DNA of 64,000 nt from an uncultured Clostridia bacterium (lineage in GTDB: Bacteria > Bacillota > Clostridia > TANB77 > CAG-508), in NCBI GenBank assembly GCA_934149075.1, contig CAKPDR010000001.1:84060-148059 (forward strand), read 5' to 3'. The first letter of the stretch is position 1; each line of letters opens with the position of its first letter. The translations under genes were made by a program, and so were the position numbers. The notes beneath the pieces are model-generated. The model saw only the letters and a list, made by a program, of their open reading frames with translations, ran no database searches and had not been told where the DNA came from. Shown piece by piece: positions 5,074 to 52,974 of the stretch.

Positions 5074-5940
5074 TTATTTTGAAATTTGATTTATGATTTC
5101 TTCTTTTTCCTCAATTGTATCTTCCAAAAGTTCAGGTTTCTTTAAATATTTTGATAACAATTTAAAAGAAAAAGCATAATAATACCCATCACAAATTCTT
5201 TCATCACCAACAAAAGCTAGCGTAATACACTTTTCTTCTTTAATTTCATCATCCTCATAAATATAGCTTTTTTTCTTTTTACCCATAGAAAAAAACATAC
5301 TTGTCGTTCCAAAATTATATATATGATGATATATACTATCAATTCCAAGAGAACCAACATTAGTTATAAAAACACTCGTATGGAATGGACTAGCATCAAT
5401 TATTTTTCTTGGTAATATTCCATGTTTATCTAAAAATACAAAAAGCTTTACAACAGCTCTAATCAATCCACTAGGAATAACATTTAAAACCGCAACTAAC
5501 TTATCTGTTTTATTTGAATTCTCAAGTTCTTTATTTTGTTCTATTGCATTATCTAGTATATCTTTTATTTCAAAAATATTCTCAGTTCCATTAAATTCTA
5601 ACTTCAATGGAGTTTCAGGACCATCATCAGTTAGGTTCTTTTTTATAACAAGCGAAACATATATTTTATCTCTTTTATATAACACTCCATTCATTGCAAA
5701 TCTATTTAAATTAGGTCTTTGACCTACAATTTTTACAATAGCAGCATATATGATATTCATATATGATAAACGTAGCCCATCTTTTGCCTTTTTCTCAATG
5801 TATTCATCTAAATTTTTTAAAGCTATGTCTTGTTTAAAATATACTTGAGAATCAGCTCTATCAAGCATTACGCAAGGCATAATTTTAAAAATTGGTGGTA
5901 AGTTTTTTATTCTTTTGCCATCTGATCTATGTCCAAACAT
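5074..5940 (-). CDS. 2-oxoacid dehydrogenase E2 catalytic-domain-like acyltransferase (stand-alone)
   Basis: The C-terminal DERICDGYYYA matches the DHRxxDG catalytic motif of the CAT/E2 acyltransferase fold. Confidence 0.55.
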   Translation of the reverse strand: MFGHRSDGKRIKNLPPIFKIMPCVMLDRADSQVYFKQDIALKNLDEYIEKKAKDGLRLSYMNIIYAAIVKIVGQRPNLNRFAMNGVLYKRDKIYVSLVIKKNLTDDGPETPLKLEFNGTENIFEIKDILDNAIEQNKELENSNKTDKLVAVLNVIPSGLIRAVVKLFVFLDKHGILPRKIIDASPFHTSVFITNVGSLGIDSIYHHIYNFGTTSMFFSMGKKKKSYIYEDDEIKEEKCITLAFVGDERICDGYYYAFSFKLLSKYLKKPELLEDTIEEKEEIINQISK

Positions 5941-8208: not shown

Positions 8209-8248
8209 TTTTAATCCTCTCTAAAATTTTATTCCTATTTTTTTCTTT

Positions 8249-8279
8249 GGGAAATTTTGTACCGGGTACATTTTTTCCC
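8249..8279. repeat. 31-bp palindrome, GTACCGGGTAC-core family (copy F1, imperfect)
   Basis: GGGAAATTTTGTACCGGGTACATTTTTTCCC. Outer GGGAAA/TTTCCC and inner TGTACC/GGTACA arms pair, with a 3-nt internal bubble. Confidence 0.85.
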
Positions 8280-9339: not shown

Positions 9340-9354
9340 TTCTTATTCCTCTCT

Positions 9355-9385
9355 GGGACAAAATGTACCGGGTACATTTTGTCCC
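9355..9385. repeat. 31-bp perfect palindrome, same family (copy F2)
   Basis: GGGACAAAATGTACCGGGTACATTTTGTCCC. Its last base is part of the TAG stop of the 9385..10911 gene. Confidence 0.9.
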
Positions 9386-10911
9386 TATTTTGTTATTTCA
9401 TAAAACACAAAATTATCATCTTCTTTTATTAGGTTGTATCCATCTAGTTTTGTATTTTGAATAATCATATTCATTTTTGAATCTTTATATAAGATAATAT
9501 GTGTTATGTCATACTTTTTAAATATATCTTCAAACCATATATCTAAATTTGAACTTTTTATAAAGTCCATAAATATATCTCTTCCTCCATTATATTCTGG
9601 TGCATATAAATCACATCTAGAGTCAATAAATACCGGTATTCCTTTGTATAATAAATAACTTCCATAATTATATTCATTATATAATCTTACATTTTTTATA
9701 TTAATGTTGTTGTTATTAAAATATTGTATAATAAAATCACTCATTTCTACGGGGTATGATTTTTCATCTACATATTTTGCTTTAATTTTTGTTTTCACAA
9801 AATATAAACTTATTATTAAGATTAATGCTGATATCATAAATCCACCAAATAATGTTGTAAATACTTCTATAAGTTTTTCATCTACATCTTTTACTTCTTT
9901 TTTTACAAAGTCATATACTAGCCTATTCAATATAACTGAACATATTATTACAAACATTGTTGATTGTCTTTTTGAATATAGCATTAGCAATACTAATCCG
10001 CCAAGCATAAACAAATCAATTAATCTAATTTTAATATCTGTAAATGCCAATATTGCAATAAATATTATTAACACACATAGTATTTCTGCATTTTTTATTA
10101 ATGTCATTGGTAAATGTTCATTTATGTTTTGTGTTGTATTTCCTTGCATTGTCTTGATTAAATATGTATATGGCGTAGTTCCTAAAGGTGTTAAAAATCC
10201 AGTCAAAGTGCAGATTATCATTACTACTATTAGATATTTTACTCCATCTCTTTTTGTTAATGAGATTTTCTTTCCTTCTTTGAATTGTTTTCCATATTTT
10301 TTTGCAAATTTTTCTTCTATAATAATTACTATATATTCTGCTATATATGGTAAGTATAAAATAAACATAAATGGCCAAACAGCAACATGTAAATTTGCTA
10401 TTAATATTGATATTGCAATTAATCCAATTCCATATCTCTTTTTACTCGTATTGGCTAATTGCTCCATCAAATATATTTGTAGAGAAAATAATATAAATGT
10501 TACAAGTTGTGCTCTTGCTGCAATGTAATCTCTTAACATATACATTGCTCCAATTGTAACTACAAATGATACAACTTTATTTTTTACTAATTTAGAGTTT
10601 GTTTCGTATATCGTTATTCCTAATAATGCTGAAAATATACATGTTGATATATATATTCCAACAATTCCTCCTATTGAATATATTAAATATATTATTACAT
10701 CATATAACCAATGTGGATATGTATATTCTAAATCCTGATGCCACGAAAACGGGTCTATCATGTCTATTCCTTTGTTTTCTATTATGTGTTCTCCTATTTT
10801 TATTGTGTAAAATGTATCATTTTGTAAAGTCTTTGGTGTTATACTTATACAAAATATTGCAATTAAAATTATTGCCATAATTTCGAAATAAATTGTTTTT
10901 TTATTTTTCAT
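9385..10911 (-). CDS. Large polytopic membrane protein (508 aa), function unknown
   Basis: ORF track. More than 10 hydrophobic helices followed by a soluble C-terminal domain. Confidence 0.6.
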   Translation of the reverse strand: MKNKKTIYFEIMAIILIAIFCISITPKTLQNDTFYTIKIGEHIIENKGIDMIDPFSWHQDLEYTYPHWLYDVIIYLIYSIGGIVGIYISTCIFSALLGITIYETNSKLVKNKVVSFVVTIGAMYMLRDYIAARAQLVTFILFSLQIYLMEQLANTSKKRYGIGLIAISILIANLHVAVWPFMFILYLPYIAEYIVIIIEEKFAKKYGKQFKEGKKISLTKRDGVKYLIVVMIICTLTGFLTPLGTTPYTYLIKTMQGNTTQNINEHLPMTLIKNAEILCVLIIFIAILAFTDIKIRLIDLFMLGGLVLLMLYSKRQSTMFVIICSVILNRLVYDFVKKEVKDVDEKLIEVFTTLFGGFMISALILIISLYFVKTKIKAKYVDEKSYPVEMSDFIIQYFNNNNINIKNVRLYNEYNYGSYLLYKGIPVFIDSRCDLYAPEYNGGRDIFMDFIKSSNLDIWFEDIFKKYDITHIILYKDSKMNMIIQNTKLDGYNLIKEDDNFVFYEITK

Positions 10912-31185: not shown

Positions 31186-31285
31186 AATTAATTTTTTCCT
31201 TCCTTTTTATATTTGTTAATTAGATTGTATCATGACTAAAGTGACAAGTAAGTGACTATTTTAAATTTTATCAATTTACAAATAG

Positions 31286-31449
31286 TTACCAGTAGGGACA
31301 CCCATAAATGGTAAATTTTTTTACCACTAGGGACACCCTTTGTAATATTGGGGTTAACATCTTTTTTATAATGGTGTCCCTTCTGGTAATTTTTTTTACC
31401 AAAAATGAGTGTCCCCACTGGTAAAAATTCTTACCAACGGGGACACCCT
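31286..31449. repeat. REP-like cluster A: 5 units (2 forward, 2 reverse, 1 forward)
   Basis: Units at 31286-31314, 31321-31345, 31370-31389(rev), 31396-31424(rev) and 31431-31448. Each is TTACCA-NNN-GGGACAC(C/T)C.., with or without the closing TGGTAA arm. Confidence 0.9.
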
Positions 31450-31452
31450 TTC

Positions 31453-34141: not shown

Positions 34142-34149
34142 TCCTTCCT

Positions 34150-34211
34150 GGGCAAAAATGTACCCGGTACAAAATTGCCCGGTAAAAAATGTACCGGGTA
34201 CATTTTTTACC
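34150..34211. repeat. Two tandem 31-bp palindromes of the GTACCGGGTAC-core family (F3a, F3b)
   Basis: GGGCAAAAATGTACCCGGTACAAAATTGCCC followed by GGTAAAAAATGTACCGGGTACATTTTTTACC. They lie between the TAG of the ArsR gene and the SD of the ATPase. Confidence 0.9.
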
Positions 34212-34561
34212 TATCTATGTTCATAGCTTTCTTCTATATGTTTTTTAGCTAGTTCATACATTTCTGAAATATGTTCATCATCTAAAGAATAATAAACTGT
34301 TTTTCCTTCTTTTCTAAATTTTACTAATTTTGCTTGTTTTAAAACTCTTAATTGATGAGAAATCGCAGATTGCGTAGAATTTGTTATTTCTGATATATCT
34401 CCTACACATAATTCAGATTCTAGTAATGCACTTATTATTTTCATTCTTGTTGTATCTCCAAATACTTTAAAAACTTCAGCAATATCAAATAATAAATCAT
34501 CACTAGGCATTACTTTTTTTATTTTATTTACTTTTTCTATATCAATTAATCCTTCATCCAT
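34211..34561 (-). CDS. ArsR/SmtB family metalloregulator
   Basis: ELCVGDISEITNSTQSAISHQLRVLKQAKLVKFRKEGKTVYYSL. Confidence 0.85.
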   Translation of the reverse strand: MDEGLIDIEKVNKIKKVMPSDDLLFDIAEVFKVFGDTTRMKIISALLESELCVGDISEITNSTQSAISHQLRVLKQAKLVKFRKEGKTVYYSLDDEHISEMYELAKKHIEESYEHR

Positions 34562-42600: not shown

Positions 42601-43203
42601 TTAAGTCAATGGATTTGACTGGTAGGTTAATTCGACTTGGTTTAGCAATCCAAGTTCATCCATTCTTTCCATAACCAATTTCAAATCCTTAATAAAATCA
42701 ATCTTTTTAGTTTCATCACGCAAAAGAGCTGCAGGGTGCCAAGTGGGCATATATAATATTCCCTTCTTTTCAATCCATTTACCTCTACTAGCAGTAATCC
42801 CATACTCTTTTCCTAAAATATTTTTTAATGCAACACTTCCCAATAAAACAATAATTTTAGGTTTAACAAGAATCACCTGATTTCTTAAATAATTTAAACA
42901 AGCCATAGCCTCATCATCTTGCGGATTTCTATTGGAAGGAGGTCTGCATTTAACTATATTTGCAATATAAACTTTATTTCTATCTAATCCAATGATTTCA
43001 AATGCCATATTCATTAACTTTCCAGCTTTTCCAACAAAAGGTATTCCCTGAATATCCTCGTCTGCTCCAGGTCCCTCACCAATAAACATTAGATCTGTTT
43101 CTTTGCTTCCTACACCAAATACAACATTACTTCTTGTTTGGCACAATTTACACTTTCTACATTGTTTAGCATCTTCTTCTAATTGTTCCCAATTATTGTA
43201 CAT
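42601..43203 (-). CDS. Uracil-DNA glycosylase, family 4
   Basis: CRKCKLC, GEGPGADED and HPAALLR. Confidence 0.85.
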   Translation of the reverse strand: MYNNWEQLEEDAKQCRKCKLCQTRSNVVFGVGSKETDLMFIGEGPGADEDIQGIPFVGKAGKLMNMAFEIIGLDRNKVYIANIVKCRPPSNRNPQDDEAMACLNYLRNQVILVKPKIIVLLGSVALKNILGKEYGITASRGKWIEKKGILYMPTWHPAALLRDETKKIDFIKDLKLVMERMDELGLLNQVELTYQSNPLT

Positions 43204-43215
43204 ATTTTTCTCCTT

Positions 43216-43273
43216 TTACCAGTGGGGACACCCATTAATGGTAAAAATTTTTACCACTGGGGACACCCATTAC
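43216..43273 (+). repeat. REP-like cluster B: 2 forward units directly 3' of the RAYT-like gene and 12 nt upstream of the UDG start
   Basis: TTACCAGTGGGGACACCCATTAATGGTAA (43216-43244) and TTACCACTGGGGACACCCATTAC (43251-43273). Confidence 0.9.
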
Positions 43274-43288
43274 ATAAATAACTAGTTA

Positions 43289-44051
43289 TTATTCCATCTT
43301 TTTTAAAATTTTTGTAATCTTTGGTCTGTTTATGTTCAAAATTTCTGATAATTTTCTTGCAGAAATATTCGAATTTTTTTTTAGTTCTTTGATAACCTCT
43401 TTAAGATACTCTTCATTATTATTCAACATTTCTATAGAAATGTTTTCGTTATGCAAATATTCGCTAATAACTTCAGCAAAGTTAATCTCTTCGTCAATAT
43501 CATTTATATCAACAATCTTTTTATTTAAATGTTGTTTAAGAAAGACTTCTAAATATTCATCTACACCATAAATCAATTTTGCACATTGTGAATCAATTAT
43601 CTCTTTCTTTCCTAGCCATTCACTATAACTTGAATATTCATAATCCCCTGCATTTTGCACTATTCCGGGCTTTTACAGGGTTATTATGTATATAAACTAA
43701 ACAATTATATAATTGTTCTTTTGACAAAATTGGCTGAGTAAAATATCTATTTCTAAATACTACTCCAACTCTTTTATTTATATAATTATAATGCATTGCA
43801 AAATTTGTGTTGACCATTTGCATAACCTTTGTAACTTCATACGGTTCTATAGTATGAAATAATACATGAGCATGATTTCCCATTATACAATATGAAAGTA
43901 TCTTTGCATTACTTTCTTCTATGTATTTTTTTAAAAGATTTTTGTATTTTTTCTTTAGTTCATCTGTCCTGAAAATAAATTCCTTGTTTATTCCCTGGGA
44001 CATTACATGAAGATATTCTGTCTTCATATCTTTTCTTGCTTTTCGGGGCAT
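43289..44051 (-). pseudogene. HUH/Y1 transposase of the IS200/RAYT type with a C-terminal HTH extension, split by a 1-nt frameshift
   Basis: HUH is GNHAHVL and the catalytic Tyr context is LVYIHNNPVKA. ORF1 stops at 43638. In the other frame the sequence continues GIVQNAGDYEYSSYSEW... to an HTH-like ISARKLSEILNINRPKITKIL. The shift maps to the GCCCGG run at about 43665-43670. The likely start is MPRKARK after AGGAGGAG. Confidence 0.75.
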
Positions 44052-44249
44052 AAGGTCTCCTCCTTTTTTATATTTTATTGCCCCCATCACTCTATTTTAT
44101 AGTTTTATCATATTTTCAAAATTTTGTAAACATAATTCTTGTTTTTTATTAATTTTTTTATTATAAGATAACGATTTATTTTAAATTAATACAAAGAAAG
44201 CTCAATCTTATACTGAGCTTTTTATAGATTATTATAATTTATTTTATTC

Positions 44250-44305
44250 AAAGGTTGTCCCTTGTGGTAAAAATTTTTACCATTAATGAGTGTCCCCAAT
44301 GGTAA
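44250..44305 (-). repeat. REP-like cluster C: 2 reverse units
   Basis: AAAGGTTGTCCCTTGTGGTAA (44250-44270) and TTACCATTAATGAGTGTCCCCAATGGTAA (44277-44305). Confidence 0.9.
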
Positions 44306-45077
44306 AAATTCTTAATGCATTTTCATATGTAATTTTCGCAATTTCATCTATTGGCATTTCCTTAAAATTCGCAATTTTTTGAGCAATGAATTTCACATTT
44401 TTCGAATCATTTCTCTTTCCTCTATTAGGTTCTGGAGACAAATATGGACTATCTGTTTCAATTAAAATTCTATCTAGTGGAACCAATTTTACAATATCTG
44501 ACGCATTTTTTGAATTCTTGAAAGTTACAGGACCTGCAAATGATATATAATATCCTAATTCAAGAGCCTGTTTTATCATCTCTTGATTAAATTGACAGCA
44601 GTGGAAGATTCCTGCCTTTTTCACTGTATGTTCTTTTATAACGTTTATCGTATCAACTGAAGCATCCCTAGAGTGTATCACTATTGGTAAGTTTAATTCA
44701 TTTGCTAAATCTATCTGTTTTATAAACGCTTCTGTTTGTAACTCTTTATTTTCCTTGTTCCAATAATAATCTAGACCAATTTCCCCTATTGCAACTAATT
44801 TATTTGTTTTGTTTTCTTTTATAATTTTAGTTATTTTCTCTATATCTTTCCACAGTTCTTGATCAGATTGTGGAATATCATTAGGCGAAATACCACAAAT
44901 TGAATAAATAAATTCATATTTTTGAGATAATTCTATAGCTTTTTGTGATGACTCTATATTATAACCAGCACATACAAATTTTGTTATTCCAGCTTCATAC
45001 GTTTCTTTTATTATTTGTTCTCTATCTTTATCAAATTTTTCGTCATTATAATGTGAATGCGTATCAAAAAGTTCCAT
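44283..45077 (-). CDS. tatD: TatD-family metal-dependent DNase/hydrolase
   Basis: MELFDTHSHY.., ..GEIGLDY.., ..IHSRDA.., ..ETDSPYL. The last 8 codons and the stop lie inside REP unit C2. Confidence 0.9.
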   Translation of the reverse strand: MELFDTHSHYNDEKFDKDREQIIKETYEAGITKFVCAGYNIESSQKAIELSQKYEFIYSICGISPNDIPQSDQELWKDIEKITKIIKENKTNKLVAIGEIGLDYYWNKENKELQTEAFIKQIDLANELNLPIVIHSRDASVDTINVIKEHTVKKAGIFHCCQFNQEMIKQALELGYYISFAGPVTFKNSKNASDIVKLVPLDRILIETDSPYLSPEPNRGKRNDSKNVKFIAQKIANFKEMPIDEIAKITYENALRIFTIGDTH

Positions 45078-45135
45078 ATTTTTATCCTCTTTTCTGTTTT
45101 TAATTTTAATTACATTAAATTCTTACTCTTTTCGC

Positions 45136-45226
45136 AAAGGGTGTCCCCAATGGTAAATTTTTTTACCATTAATGGGTGTCCCCCGTGGTAAACTTTTTTA
45201 CCATTAATGAGTGTCCCTAATGGTAA
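45136..45226 (-). repeat. REP-like cluster D: 3 reverse units
   Basis: 45136-45156, 45163-45191 and 45198-45226 (AAAGGGTGTCCCCAATGGTAA, TTACCATTAATGGGTGTCCCCCGTGGTAA, TTACCATTAATGAGTGTCCCTAATGGTAA). Confidence 0.9.
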
Positions 45227-45584
45227 AAATTGCATTTGCAACTGCATATTCTCTGCAATGAGATATACTTACATCTACGTCCTCAGATTTTATATCATGA
45301 TTTAATATGTTTACATATGGTTTTCCTGTATCATCATTTAAAATTTCTATGTCTTTCCAATTAATGCCATATTTGTCAGGTATCATTACTGAAATTGCTT
45401 TAAATACTGCTTCTTTTGCAGCAAATCTTGCAGCATAATGTTGATATTTTTGTGTCTTTTTACTTTCACAATATTCAATCTCTTTTTCCGTGTACACTCT
45501 CTCGCAAAATTTTCCTTCAGTTTCTTCGATACATTTTTTTACTCTCTCTATTTCAATTATATCTACACCTGTTTTTATCTTCAT
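45204..45584 (-). CDS. acpS: Holo-[acyl-carrier-protein] synthase
   Basis: GVDIIEIERV, FAAKEAVFKA and SISHCREYAVA. The terminal codons and the stop lie inside REP unit D3. Confidence 0.9.
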   Translation of the reverse strand: MKIKTGVDIIEIERVKKCIEETEGKFCERVYTEKEIEYCESKKTQKYQHYAARFAAKEAVFKAISVMIPDKYGINWKDIEILNDDTGKPYVNILNHDIKSEDVDVSISHCREYAVANAIFTIRDTH

Positions 45585-49210: not shown

Positions 49211-49287
49211 ATAAACTCCTCCCTTGTATAATAAAAGTATATAACATCTCTTTTAGAATTTCAACACTTTTTATGAAATTTTATTAT

Positions 49288-49415
49288 TTACCAGTAGGGA
49301 CACCCATCTTTGGTAAAAAATGTTACCAGAAGGGACACCCTTCATCGCCAAAATGTTGTAAATGGTGTCCCCGGTGGTAAAAAATTTTACCACTAATGAG
49401 TGTCCCCAGTGGTAA
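49288..49415. repeat. REP-like cluster E: 2 forward plus 2 reverse units forming a 128-bp composite palindromic element
   Basis: 49288-49316, 49323-49340, 49360-49380(rev) and 49387-49415(rev). Confidence 0.9.
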
Positions 49416-51807
49416 ATAATTTACAAACAATTATACTCATATCATCCTTTGCAATCCCATAACTATTATCAATCGCCTCATTTAATATTAAATCGGCTAT
49501 TTTTTGTGTATTTGTAGTTTCAATATCTTCTAGCATATATTTGACCCAAAGTTCTTTATTTTTATATTCAATATTTGAATCTAAAATTCCGTCACTGCAC
49601 ATTACTAAAATGTCTTGGTTTTCAATGTCCTTGTCATATGTTGTTAAATTTATATCTTTTAAAATTCCTGCCGGCAAGCTTAATGATTTTACAATTTGAA
49701 CTTTTTTCTTATTTTTTACATATGTTGGGCAAGCACCATTTTTTATAAATTCAATTTTTCCATTATATAAGTCTATAATAGCAATATCTAGTGTTGCAAA
49801 TATCTCTTCATTTGTGTTCATAATTGTTGTATTTATTAAGTCTATTGATGTGTCTTTATCAAATCCAGACATCAATAATCTTTCCAACATTTTTATTGCT
49901 ATTTGGCTACTTTTTCTTGCTTCTGGTCCAGTTCCCATTCCATCACTTAATGCTAACAAATATTTTCCGTCGTTTAATCTAATTTGTATAAAACTGTCTC
50001 CTGATACTGGACTTCCATCTTTTATTTTGGTTGCATGTCCTATTTGAATAATGTACTTATCTGCTGATAAATAACTAAATACTCTTTTTCCTTGCTTATT
50101 TAATTTTTTTGTTTTTGCTTCATTTCTCATTAATTTTTCATTTAAGCATTTTTCTAAAACCTTTTGTACTTTGTCAATATCTGTATTTTCACTTGTTTTA
50201 CTATTTTCTTGTAAATATACATCTATAAAATACCTATTATCTTGCTTATTTATTTCTATTCCATCCACCAAAATTTCTTTTATTTCAAGTGCTGTAATAG
50301 CCTTCTTTTTTTCTTCTAGTAAATTATCATCTTGTTTTATTTCTTCTTCTATCTTTACTGCAATGCTTGAAATTGCTTTTGATACTCCATCTAATTGTGC
50401 TTGTACATTTTTCTTATTTGATTTTACTTTTTCTTTCCAGATAAAATTAGATTTACTTACTTTGTATGCATAATTTACTGCTTTTACTATTTGTTCTATG
50501 TCACTGTTCATTCTTTTGCTGATTTTTTCATCATCATATTGAACTATATAATTATTGAATTTTGCAAATGTTTTTAGTAAATCTTCTCTATCTATTTCTT
50601 GCTTGTCTAATAGAATATCAAATAATTCATTTACAATTTCATTTTCTGGTTTTACCATATCTTCATATAGCATATTGTCTTCAAGACCATCAAGATTATT
50701 TAATAATTCTGTTATAAATGATTGTCTATTTTTAAAGTACATATTTGTTTCTGGTTTTTCTTGATATGTATTTGCCATATCTTTTATTGTTTCTGAAACC
50801 ATATTTAACTGATTTATTGTTTCTTTGCTTTGTTCTAGACCTCTTTTATTATATTCAGGTAACATATTATCACTTTTAATAAGTTCTTCTACATCTATTC
50901 CCGCCCATTTTGGAATTGCAAGTAGCCCTAATGATGCAACTAATGCTTCTTTAAATACAACTAAATCCGTTGCTGTTCCTTTTGAGGCATATAACAATAT
51001 TCCATTTCCTATCAAGAATCCTATTATTACACCTAATTTTCCAAATCTATTTAAAAATCCTGCAATCATTCCTGAAATAGCATATACTGCAATTACCATT
51101 GGTTCATTTTGAGCAATTATTCCTAATGTTACTCCTATTGTAACACCTGCTGTTGTTCCTACTAGTACTCCATTTCTCCAACCAAGTATCAATACCATTA
51201 ATATACTTAAAATATTTCTGATTGATAATCCTAATATTGAAAAGTCACCAAATGCTGAAACTGCTATTGATACAAGCAAACTTGCTCCAATTACTTCTTC
51301 TATAGAAAATGCTCTTTTTTCTGTTATTTCTTGTATTACTATCAATGAATTAACAAAAATTTTATAAAATACAACAGAAAATATTGCTAAAGTTATATGT
51401 AATAACATATCACCAATTGTGAATTTTGTTAAAACTAATTTGGCAATCATTACCAATAATATACTTGCAAATACATGCATTGATATTTGCATTTGCTCAT
51501 TTTTGTATTGGTCGTTCTCTTTTGGAGGTTTTATGCATAATAATATTAATAGCATTAATATTATTAATATATAATTTAAAACACCTATGGCTCCAACCCC
51601 TATAAAATTACCAATAAGTCCTGCTACTACAACCATTATGGCAGGTACTCCTCCTGCTAAACTAGCAGCTACTATTGCTATACTAAATGGTGAAACTTCT
51701 TGTCCCATTCCTATTGTTGATATCATAAATGCTATTATATATATAATTATATTCTTTATATTTATTAAATTTTTTAGTATTTCTTTTCCTGTATTTTGTT
51801 TTGACAT
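49393..51807 (-). CDS. spoIIE: Stage II sporulation protein E (polytopic membrane PP2C phosphatase)
   Basis: About 10 N-terminal TM helices, a central domain and a C-terminal PP2C (ALSDGMGTG...MCSDG..., DDMSIIV). The likely start is MSKQNTG after GAGGTGG. The last codons and the TAG stop lie inside REP unit E4. Confidence 0.85.
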   Translation of the reverse strand: MSKQNTGKEILKNLINIKNIIIYIIAFMISTIGMGQEVSPFSIAIVAASLAGGVPAIMVVVAGLIGNFIGVGAIGVLNYILIILMLLILLCIKPPKENDQYKNEQMQISMHVFASILLVMIAKLVLTKFTIGDMLLHITLAIFSVVFYKIFVNSLIVIQEITEKRAFSIEEVIGASLLVSIAVSAFGDFSILGLSIRNILSILMVLILGWRNGVLVGTTAGVTIGVTLGIIAQNEPMVIAVYAISGMIAGFLNRFGKLGVIIGFLIGNGILLYASKGTATDLVVFKEALVASLGLLAIPKWAGIDVEELIKSDNMLPEYNKRGLEQSKETINQLNMVSETIKDMANTYQEKPETNMYFKNRQSFITELLNNLDGLEDNMLYEDMVKPENEIVNELFDILLDKQEIDREDLLKTFAKFNNYIVQYDDEKISKRMNSDIEQIVKAVNYAYKVSKSNFIWKEKVKSNKKNVQAQLDGVSKAISSIAVKIEEEIKQDDNLLEEKKKAITALEIKEILVDGIEINKQDNRYFIDVYLQENSKTSENTDIDKVQKVLEKCLNEKLMRNEAKTKKLNKQGKRVFSYLSADKYIIQIGHATKIKDGSPVSGDSFIQIRLNDGKYLLALSDGMGTGPEARKSSQIAIKMLERLLMSGFDKDTSIDLINTTIMNTNEEIFATLDIAIIDLYNGKIEFIKNGACPTYVKNKKKVQIVKSLSLPAGILKDINLTTYDKDIENQDILVMCSDGILDSNIEYKNKELWVKYMLEDIETTNTQKIADLILNEAIDNSYGIAKDDMSIIVCKLFTTGDTH

Positions 51808-52938: not shown

Positions 52939-52943
52939 AAAAT

Positions 52944-52974
52944 GGGGAAAATTGTACCAGGTACAAATTTTCCC
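52944..52974. repeat. 31-bp palindrome, GTACC(A/G)GGTAC-core family (copy F4), between convergent stop codons
   Basis: GGGGAAAATTGTACCAGGTACAAATTTTCCC, 5 nt from each flanking stop codon. Confidence 0.85.

Follow-up and report, generated by a model that had tools for sequence, protein, structure and literature searches.

The closest described counterparts of the repeats reported here are those of TIRYT/TIRtron systems, in which a gene for a Y1 HUH transposase with the signatures of REP-associated tyrosine transposases (RAYTs; REP, repetitive extragenic palindrome) and a C-terminal helix-turn-helix (HTH) is flanked by inverted repeats with the motif GGGGWSAS. The repeat is also dispersed as dimers and clusters, and related species keep the gene in the same chromosomal location (Di Nocera et al. 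2013, PMC3733652). Most of these traits recur in a 64,000-nucleotide stretch of contig CAKPDR010000001.1 (here called the window) from an uncultured Clostridia bacterium, where a RAYT-type gene stands between tatD and udg among five clusters of a palindromic repeat carrying the box GGGGACAC, and where three unrelated genes, tatD, acpS, and spoIIE, end inside repeat units and share one repeat-encoded tail. The locus differs from TIRtrons in its 35-bp tandem arrays with shared hairpin arms, in a conserved +1 frame break in the transposase gene, and in its host, an uncultured, AT-rich, spore-forming member of gut Clostridia. A C-terminal HTH is also found in TnpAREP-like subclass 2.1, which equals TIRYT (Quentin et al. 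2018, PMC6006769). The two surveys (PMC3733652 and PMC6006769) do not mention Firmicutes and name Clostridia once, for subclass 1.1. Group 1 RAYTs occur also in Clostridia (Bertels et al. 2017, PMC5581495), and the window gene is probably one of them.

Classical REP, BIME, and REPIN-RAYT systems of Enterobacteria and Pseudomonas are similar to this locus in having inverted pairs of short palindromes, a flanked RAYT gene, and copies that favor spots just 3' of open reading frame (ORF) ends. REPs generally lie less than 20 bp from ORF 3' ends, with some inside the ORF ends (PMC3733652), and in Escherichia coli 260 of 496 REPs are at most 15 nt from a stop codon (PMC12306157). The classical systems differ in having GC-rich stems, while the window repeats have AT-rich stems and a GC-rich loop or box; the GTAG tag is present here in only some units, the window protein scores 66.7 bits, under the NCBIfam cutoff of 80, and a much larger share of copies overlaps a stop codon. 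The Rickettsia palindromic elements (RPEs; Ogata et al. 2000, also discussed in PMC3733652) are reportedly translated in frame within many unrelated proteins as well, and they are said to insert inside ORFs and to add 30-50 internal residues, whereas here only the extreme C-terminus is replaced and a stop codon is provided. In Coxiella burnetii, the miniature inverted-repeat transposable elements (MITEs) QMITE1 and QMITE2 overlap the 3' ends of ubiB, mutT, recN, ruvB, ogt, and other genes by 1-50 bp (PMC5896051) and can confer the last amino acids or the stop codon (Wachter et al. 2018, PMC5896051). An indel can join a gene to a QMITE, as in enhC, and the 3' preference was ascribed to tolerance of C-terminal changes (PMC5896051). 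QMITEs share with the window repeats that palindromes overlap the 3' ends of functional housekeeping genes and give the stop, but they are longer MITEs with no RAYT partner, and no single frame or common tail has been reported for them. An earlier note on this DNA had considered that a repeat systematically replacing the stop codons of housekeeping genes would be unusual in a Firmicute. Given the Coxiella elements and the REPs within ORF ends, stop-supplying palindromes are already known, and what is new here is the repeat family, the host, the high fraction of captured stops, and the single shared frame and tail.

The claim of that note that TatD, AcpS, and SpoIIE terminate inside the repeat with a common tail was confirmed in the sequence. 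The three genes and their repeat-encoded ends are as follows.

44283..45077, minus strand: tatD, TatD-family hydrolase, 264 aa; Pfam PF01026, E 6.7e-83, residues 4-258
44283..44303, minus strand: repeat-encoded tail and stop of TatD, ACC ATT GGG GAC ACT CAT TAA (T-I-G-D-T-H-stop)
45204..45584, minus strand: acpS, holo-ACP synthase, 126 aa; Pfam PF01648, E 3.6e-19, residues 6-116
45204..45224, minus strand: repeat-encoded tail and stop of AcpS, ACC ATT AGG GAC ACT CAT TAA
49393..51816, minus strand: spoIIE, 807 aa; Pfam PF19732 and PF07228 (residues 616-800)
49393..49413, minus strand: repeat-encoded tail and stop of SpoIIE, ACC ACT GGG GAC ACT CAT TAG

TatD ends in RIFTIGDTH (TAA at 44283-44285), AcpS in AIFTIRDTH (TAA at 45204-45206), and SpoIIE in KLFTTGDTH (TAG at 49393-49395). 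The last seven codons of all three genes, ACC nnn (G/A)GG GAC ACT CAT TAA/TAG, lie inside a repeat unit, and the shared ..FT(I/T)(G/R)DTH tail is one repeat read in one frame. The Pfam domains stop before the repeat-coded residues, at position 258 of 264 in TatD (TatD_DNase), 116 of 126 in AcpS (ACPS), and 800 of 807 in SpoIIE. Of the window's open frames with 30 codons or more, only tatD, acpS, and spoIIE end in [DN]T[HL].

Repeat-free relatives have different tails, which shows that the native genes have lost their final 2-8 codons, with the stop, to the repeat; this is the comparison of orthologous C-termini that the earlier note had proposed, and its replacement model stands. TatD proteins without the repeat, 79-91% identical to the window protein, have 260 aa and end in ..IF(N/E/K/R/D)I-stop, e.g., ..IFNI-stop, and those with the repeat, 84-100% identical, have 264 aa and end in ..IFTIGDTH-stop. 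On the element-free syntenic contigs (loci L001, L003, L162, and L167), the tatD stop is found 13 nt before the udg ATG, and there is no RAYT gene. Repeat-free AcpS ends in ..AIANVVVVERED-stop (..VVVVERED-stop) in L162 and in ..AVASVVICLI-stop in L163, and repeat-free SpoIIE ends in ..CKFVKSENL-stop (L162), ..CKLIKNF-stop (L163), or ..CKFVKQ-stop (L161). MnmG is an independent case. Its native form has 622 aa and ends in ..VFLQTKR-stop, and the repeat form has 628 aa and ends in ..NFTSGDTH-stop; in the DNA, the native codons that were displaced can still be recognized 3' of a two-unit insert, as can the ribosome-binding site of rsmG.

To see the family beyond the window, metagenome contigs were scanned with a specific pattern, which yielded 32 true loci from gut samples, about 300 kb in all, many of them in the arrangement "++--". 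A scan of a genome collection with a loose pattern (TTTACCANNNGGGACAC) gave 119 stretches, about 117 of which were chance matches in unrelated phyla; L105 and L108 were real. Five more genes end in the repeat in the metagenome loci, namely mnmG, uvrC, addB, a pseudouridine synthase gene, and the gene of a UPF0182 protein. All eight independent fusions are in the frame TTT ACC nnn GGG GAC ACy CAT TAA (P = 1.5e-4 against the 1-in-3 expectation), so the frequency of fusion in one frame does exceed chance, as the earlier note had suggested checking. At 15 further gene ends, the gene's own stop lies 0-11 nt 5' of the repeat, and at 5 of these 15 unfused sites, such as mutS, pgk, and the DNA polymerase III alpha-subunit gene, TAA or TAG is directly followed by TTTACCA. 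The unfused sites have no frame bias relative to the repeat (6:5:3). The repeat terminates the fused genes with its own stop, but its description as systematically replacing stop codons was overstated, because about 35% (8 of 23) of the gene-3'-adjacent copies supply the stop and the rest follow a native one. The proposal that the right-end ACTCAT variant is what fuses was rejected, since the fused mnmG and addB have ACCCAT and ACTCAT is also present in unfused outer copies.

Frame 0 is the only frame with two conserved stops (TAA TGG TAA, from the linker and the invariant 3' arm). The second frame has an early stop only through a TAG in the variable triplet, and the third is open for at least 19 codons. 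The second repeat stop is in use in the AcpS of L167 (2440-2480), where the first TAA is lost and the tail is VIFTIRDTHQW-stop, and in the pseudouridine synthase of L135, which ends in ..DTHNR-stop. With two conserved stops in frame 0 alone, selection for short, robustly terminated tails would predict this frame.

We consider it probable that the tails are by-products of RAYT-associated palindromic repeats that are tolerated at gene ends and supply the stop in one frame. Copies would persist only where they are harmless, flush with the gene boundaries of a gene-dense, AT-rich genome, and selection would act as a filter on insertions. A copy would land in the few codons at the end of a gene that can be spared, or become fused to them later. 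Translation would continue through the arm on the outer side (TTT ACC), then through the loop sequence nnn GGG GAC ACy CAT, and would terminate at the repeat TAA, which is backed by another TAA in the same frame six bases further. Only the frame with stops from conserved positions would survive, which would give the shared (F/I)T-x-(G/R)-D-T-H tail.

The fate of the tails in other lineages bears on whether the peptide itself matters. MnmG tails have drifted in the lineages compared, e.g., to FTSGDTN, FKNENTH, FTCGNNK, and LNSSETD, and in the AcpS of near-identical strains (P0248, P0254, and P0255), 9-nt duplications of the repeat arm have given AIFTVFTTRDTH and AIFTIRTTGDTH. In L001, which has no RAYT gene between tatD and udg, the repeats at 5690-5780 (spoIIE end) and 9850-9930 (acpS end) are heavily decayed, and they still terminate the genes (SpoIIE ..CMSNDTH-stop, AcpS ..IFTINY-stop). 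REP repeats decay where the RAYT is absent, and the state of L001 is consistent with the decay reported for REPINs after RAYT loss. As the tails drift or decay in many lineages, they look like neutral, tolerated by-products and not like a functional peptide. It is highly improbable that the ..GDTH tail is a selected signal for degradation, localization, or interaction in housekeeping proteins. The same 6-7 residues do occur on at least eight unrelated proteins and are kept across TatD proteins 84-100% identical to that of the window, but the tails have become unrelated sequences in many lineages, conservation across three species is equal in the coding part of the repeat and in the non-coding units past the stop, and the proteins that bear the tail share neither function nor compartment. 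A variant repeat in L163, moreover, yields a very different tail, LPRLPRGRS.

In the window, the repeats form five clusters.

31285..31450, no single strand: REP cluster A, five units in both orientations, 6 nt past the stop of a DUF1836 gene, unfused
43213..43272, plus strand: REP cluster B, two units, left-hand inverted repeat of the RAYT gene
44250..44312, minus strand: REP cluster C, two units, the outer one overlapping the tatD 3' end; right-hand inverted repeat of the RAYT gene
45136..45229, minus strand: REP cluster D, three direct units with 35-bp period, the outer one overlapping the acpS 3' end
49283..49420, no single strand: REP cluster E, complete palindromic doublet (2 + 2 inverted), outer arm overlapping the spoIIE 3' end

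With up to two mismatches, the core GTGTCCCNNNTGGTAAA occurs 16 times in these clusters, compared with 0.11 expected in shuffles. The consensus from 122 distinct unit contexts is TTACCA-NTR-GGGACAC-YCWT, with a period of 35 bp. In RNA or single-stranded DNA, the stable unit forms a hairpin whose arms TTTTTACCA and TGGTAAAAA enclose the loop GGGGACAC(Y)CAT, and adjacent hairpins in arrays share arms. The box is essentially invariant in the 122 contexts and fits the TIRYT motif GGGGWSAS as defined in PMC3733652 and PMC6006769. Elements are either two-unit halves or four-unit palindromic doublets ("++--"). The triplet before GGGACAC varies (G/C/A/T, T/A, G/A), and GTAG is one of several variants of this region in the 122 contexts, unlike the GTAG-tagged REP superfamily (Di Nocera 2013), in which this tetranucleotide is an invariant mark of one palindrome end. 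No MITE-type target-site duplication was seen, as the doublets have inverted ends and no consistent direct duplication at their flanks. A search of the window against Rfam 15 found two tRNAs only; at E up to 1, the interval 43100-45300 gave nothing credible, and the repeat matches no Rfam family. The earlier note had correctly stated that every cluster lies 3' of a minus-strand gene, but this is uninformative, because the minus strand carries 52 of the window's 59 gene models. The orientation-specific insertion derived from it is largely a matter of architecture: since a complete element is a palindromic doublet, the first end that a gene encounters is the same on either side, which explains most of the apparent specificity.

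Two observations concern other elements at such sites. The window has a second, unrelated palindromic repeat (GGGAAAAAATGTACCCGGTACATTTTTTCCC-like) at 8244-8279, 9350-9385, 34145-34211 (two copies), and 52939-52974. It likewise fills the gap from a stop to the next Shine-Dalgarno sequence, and at two places its first base is part of the TAG stop (9385-9387 and 34211-34213). With a second family placed alike, palindromic repeats in this genome seem generally to sit flush at junctions. In a related species, an element of about 300 bp with its own inverted ends (GGTTAATGGTTT...AAACCATTAAC) lies inside the spoIIE repeat doublet (L159, 5560-5880).

The folding of the repeats raises the possibility of a role at the RNA level. 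The tatD 3' end folds with -23.9 kcal/mol (z = -6.0), and the spoIIE doublet of cluster E with -72.2 kcal/mol (z = -10.7). A role as intrinsic terminator was rejected, since a scan found no terminator-like site within any repeat cluster. The only such site near tatD is a separate hairpin.

44197..44221, minus strand: terminator-like hairpin with a T-run, between tatD with REP cluster C and the RAYT gene

Because of this hairpin, the RAYT cassette may have split a former tatD-udg operon. Another idea is that the repeat is a functional RNA module, in which a hairpin by the stop stabilizes the mRNA 3' end, attenuates or stalls translation, or extrudes as a long hairpin and so keeps the 5' stop next to the following ribosome-binding site and preserves translational coupling, with capture of the stop codon as part of the function. 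Five doublets span exactly the gap from a stop to the next Shine-Dalgarno sequence (L129, L142, L145, L148, and L151), the doublet folding is very strong, the second palindromic family of the window is placed in the same way, and across three species the repeat DNA is more conserved than synonymous sites nearby. In E. coli, REPs that lie within 15 nt of a stop reportedly cause ribosome stalling and reduced translation (Liang 2015, cited from PMC12306157). Against such a function, repeats decay without gene loss in some lineages (L001), orthologous junctions work without any repeat, and the number of units at one site varies freely from one to three. At the acpS site, L003 has one unit, L159 and L161 have two, the window has three, and L001 has a decayed copy. 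We regard a functional module as rather unlikely.

The earlier note had missed the RAYT-type transposase gene at 43289-44051 that explains the nature of the repeats. It consists of two reading frames.

43638..44051, minus strand: RAYT/TIRYT ORF1, 137 aa from ATG; Y1 HUH domain, Pfam PF01797, E 3.4e-11
43289..43666, minus strand: RAYT/TIRYT ORF2, +1 frame; C-terminal winged HTH, Pfam HTH_24, E 1.2e-6

In ORF1, the HUH motif is HAH and the catalytic tyrosine lies in YIHNNPVKA; both motifs are unchanged in all 35 homologues compared. The protein resembles RAYTs and not IS200 transposases, matching the NCBIfam model REP_Tyr_transpos with E 1.9e-18 (66.7 bits, below the equivalog cutoff of 80) versus 2.4e-3 for IS200. 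A single RAYT sequence searched against PDB matched only an HTH regulator, and the family profile of the 35 homologues reached TnpAREP of E. coli (4ER8) as the best hit with E 5.7e-5, compared with 0.67 for ISDra2 TnpA. Clusters B and C are inverted around the gene, as in a REPtron or TIRtron, and the same layout is found in L159, L161, and L166. Cluster B comes with its outer end to 11 nt from the udg start codon, where it meets the Shine-Dalgarno sequence (minus strand, ..TGGTAAAAGGAG..ATG). The repeats are therefore a REP/TIR-type family tied to the one RAYT/TIRYT-class gene of the window, which is flanked by inverted pairs, and this gene presumably mobilizes them.

The same gene is present between tatD and udg in four further lineages (L159/L160, L161, L163, and L166), and its presence there is patchy on the TatD tree (P0001-P0120). 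The most distant lineage is L163 (JGI contig Ga0318466_10052675, 8780-8880; TatD 80% identical), which has an intact RAYT gene at the tatD-udg junction with a diverged repeat (TTACCACGGGGACGGAGTTAATGGTAAA). Its TatD ends in ..IFEILPRLPRGRS-stop, at the TAA of TAATGGTAAA. Further TatD tails in relatives are ..ILPQGWI and ..ILPWGRS (P0057 and P0063). L166 and L167 form a pair with and without the cassette, with upstream flanks 98.4% identical, udg 94.5% identical, and changes clustered at the breakpoint. This pair was considered as a fresh insertion and rejected, since the differences are clustered at the breakpoint and udg is divergent; the allele was probably imported by recombination. The clustered substitutions and the udg identity in the filled allele suggest that the RAYT cassette moves between related species by homologous recombination.

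The window gene is broken after ..NNPVKA, where the sequence reads GC(C/T) CGG AAT.. and the protein resumes in the +1 frame as GIVQ... The break sites are at 43658-43670 in the window (minus strand, GCC CGG A), about 11400 in L159, about 11415 in L161, and about 3945 in L166. The same split is shared by the window, L159/L160, L161, and L166, while the L163 orthologue is intact (GCA GGA ATC). ORF2 is collinear with the intact 263-aa L163 orthologue, at 51% identity. It is open over 125-132 codons, with dN/dS of 0.21-0.42 at dS of 0.5-0.9, and has no conserved start codon. The codon CGG is used at 0.29 per 1000 and the +1 codon GGA at 44 per 1000. RAYT homologues with more than 56% identity in a large protein database are all ORF1-only fragments. 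The open frame, the low dN/dS, the missing conserved start, and the rare CGG suggest that the downstream part is still expressed, and, as judged from these sequence features, the break would be better explained by a candidate programmed +1 frameshift, with CGG as a hungry codon, than by death of the gene.

The position of the copies relative to genes could point to a directed process. Outer (TTTACCA) ends are at a median of 0 nt from the stop versus 54 nt for inner ends (P = 4e-5), and the inner ends of half-elements are 6-633 nt from a gene boundary. At about 11 sites, the outer end meets the Shine-Dalgarno sequence of the gene that follows, at 10-19 nt from the start codon. The native tatD-udg and mnmG-rsmG spacers are 12-13 nt, and such tight spacers account for many of the flush copies but not for the asymmetry between outer and inner ends. 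A preferred target might account for it, or a role at the RNA level such as ribosome stalling or hairpin extrusion. In the first case, the RAYT or a host copying process might direct the outer end to a specific short motif or structure found where stops and ribosome-binding sites lie, so that flush placement and the fixed frame would be mechanistic and not selective. This agrees with outer ends being flush with genes while inner ends are not, with stop-flush copies even within long intergenic regions, and with the TAA or TAG directly before TTTACCA at 5 of 15 unfused sites. In both of the two empty sites examined, ATTTTTA is found just 5' of the breakpoint (tatD, GGATTTTTA before and AT after the breakpoint; mnmG, GTATTTTTA before and CA after it), which matches ATTTTTA followed by CCA inside the repeat hairpin. 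IS200/IS605 elements insert 3' of a short target, and the empty-site pattern recalls this. A related RAYT with a variant repeat is also present at the same tatD-udg junction in L163. However, the unfused sites show no frame preference (6:5:3), (A)TTTTTA is common in a genome of 26% GC and cannot by itself locate gene ends, the patchy presence at tatD-udg is better explained by recombination of alleles, and the flanks show neither target duplication nor uniformity. Targeted insertion of this kind is in our view unlikely. An IS608-like TTAC target, suggested by the TTAC in TTACCA, was rejected, as the empty tatD site has no TTAC.

Several observations weigh against the by-product explanation, which we nevertheless prefer. 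Random insertion followed by selection should treat both ends of the element alike, yet only the outer end is flush. Several copies (mutS L147, L136, L130, and L157) abut the stop despite 85-390 nt of free space on the opposite side. The filter for short tails alone leaves a residual frame bias (P ~0.03), because a TAG in the variable triplet would allow a short tail in the second frame as well at 5 of 8 sites; the residual may come from the instability of that TAG. A full-length RAYT needs a +1 frameshift, no transposition event was seen among the compared loci, and the only near-isogenic filled/empty pair (L166/L167) looks like import by recombination and not like a fresh insertion. Taken further, the placement and the frame break could point to a domesticated repeat-transposase system, with placement of the outer hairpin at junctions to nearly a single nucleotide, by a stop codon on one side and a Shine-Dalgarno sequence on the other, a role of the repeat as a junction module, and RAYT output set by programmed +1 frameshifting at GCY-CGG-A, which we regard as distinctly unlikely. 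If this were true, the repeat would shape operon junctions in a lineage of gut Clostridia, by a directed process or by strong selection, as a module that preserves translational coupling through hairpin extrusion or as a 3' structure sensed by ribosomes. If the frame break is programmed, it would represent a novel means of restraining a domesticated transposase.

Under the preferred by-product explanation, this gut lineage has dozens of housekeeping proteins with a shared tail of 6-9 residues that is repeat DNA and not a protein signal, and such tails can mislead analyses of motifs, domain boundaries, and orthology. The locus extends the biology of REP/RAYT (TIRYT) systems to an uncultured, AT-rich group of Clostridia. 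The filled, empty, and decayed alleles at tatD, acpS, spoIIE, and mnmG are a natural data set on how repeats colonize tight operon junctions, and they bear on why REPs in general adjoin stop codons.

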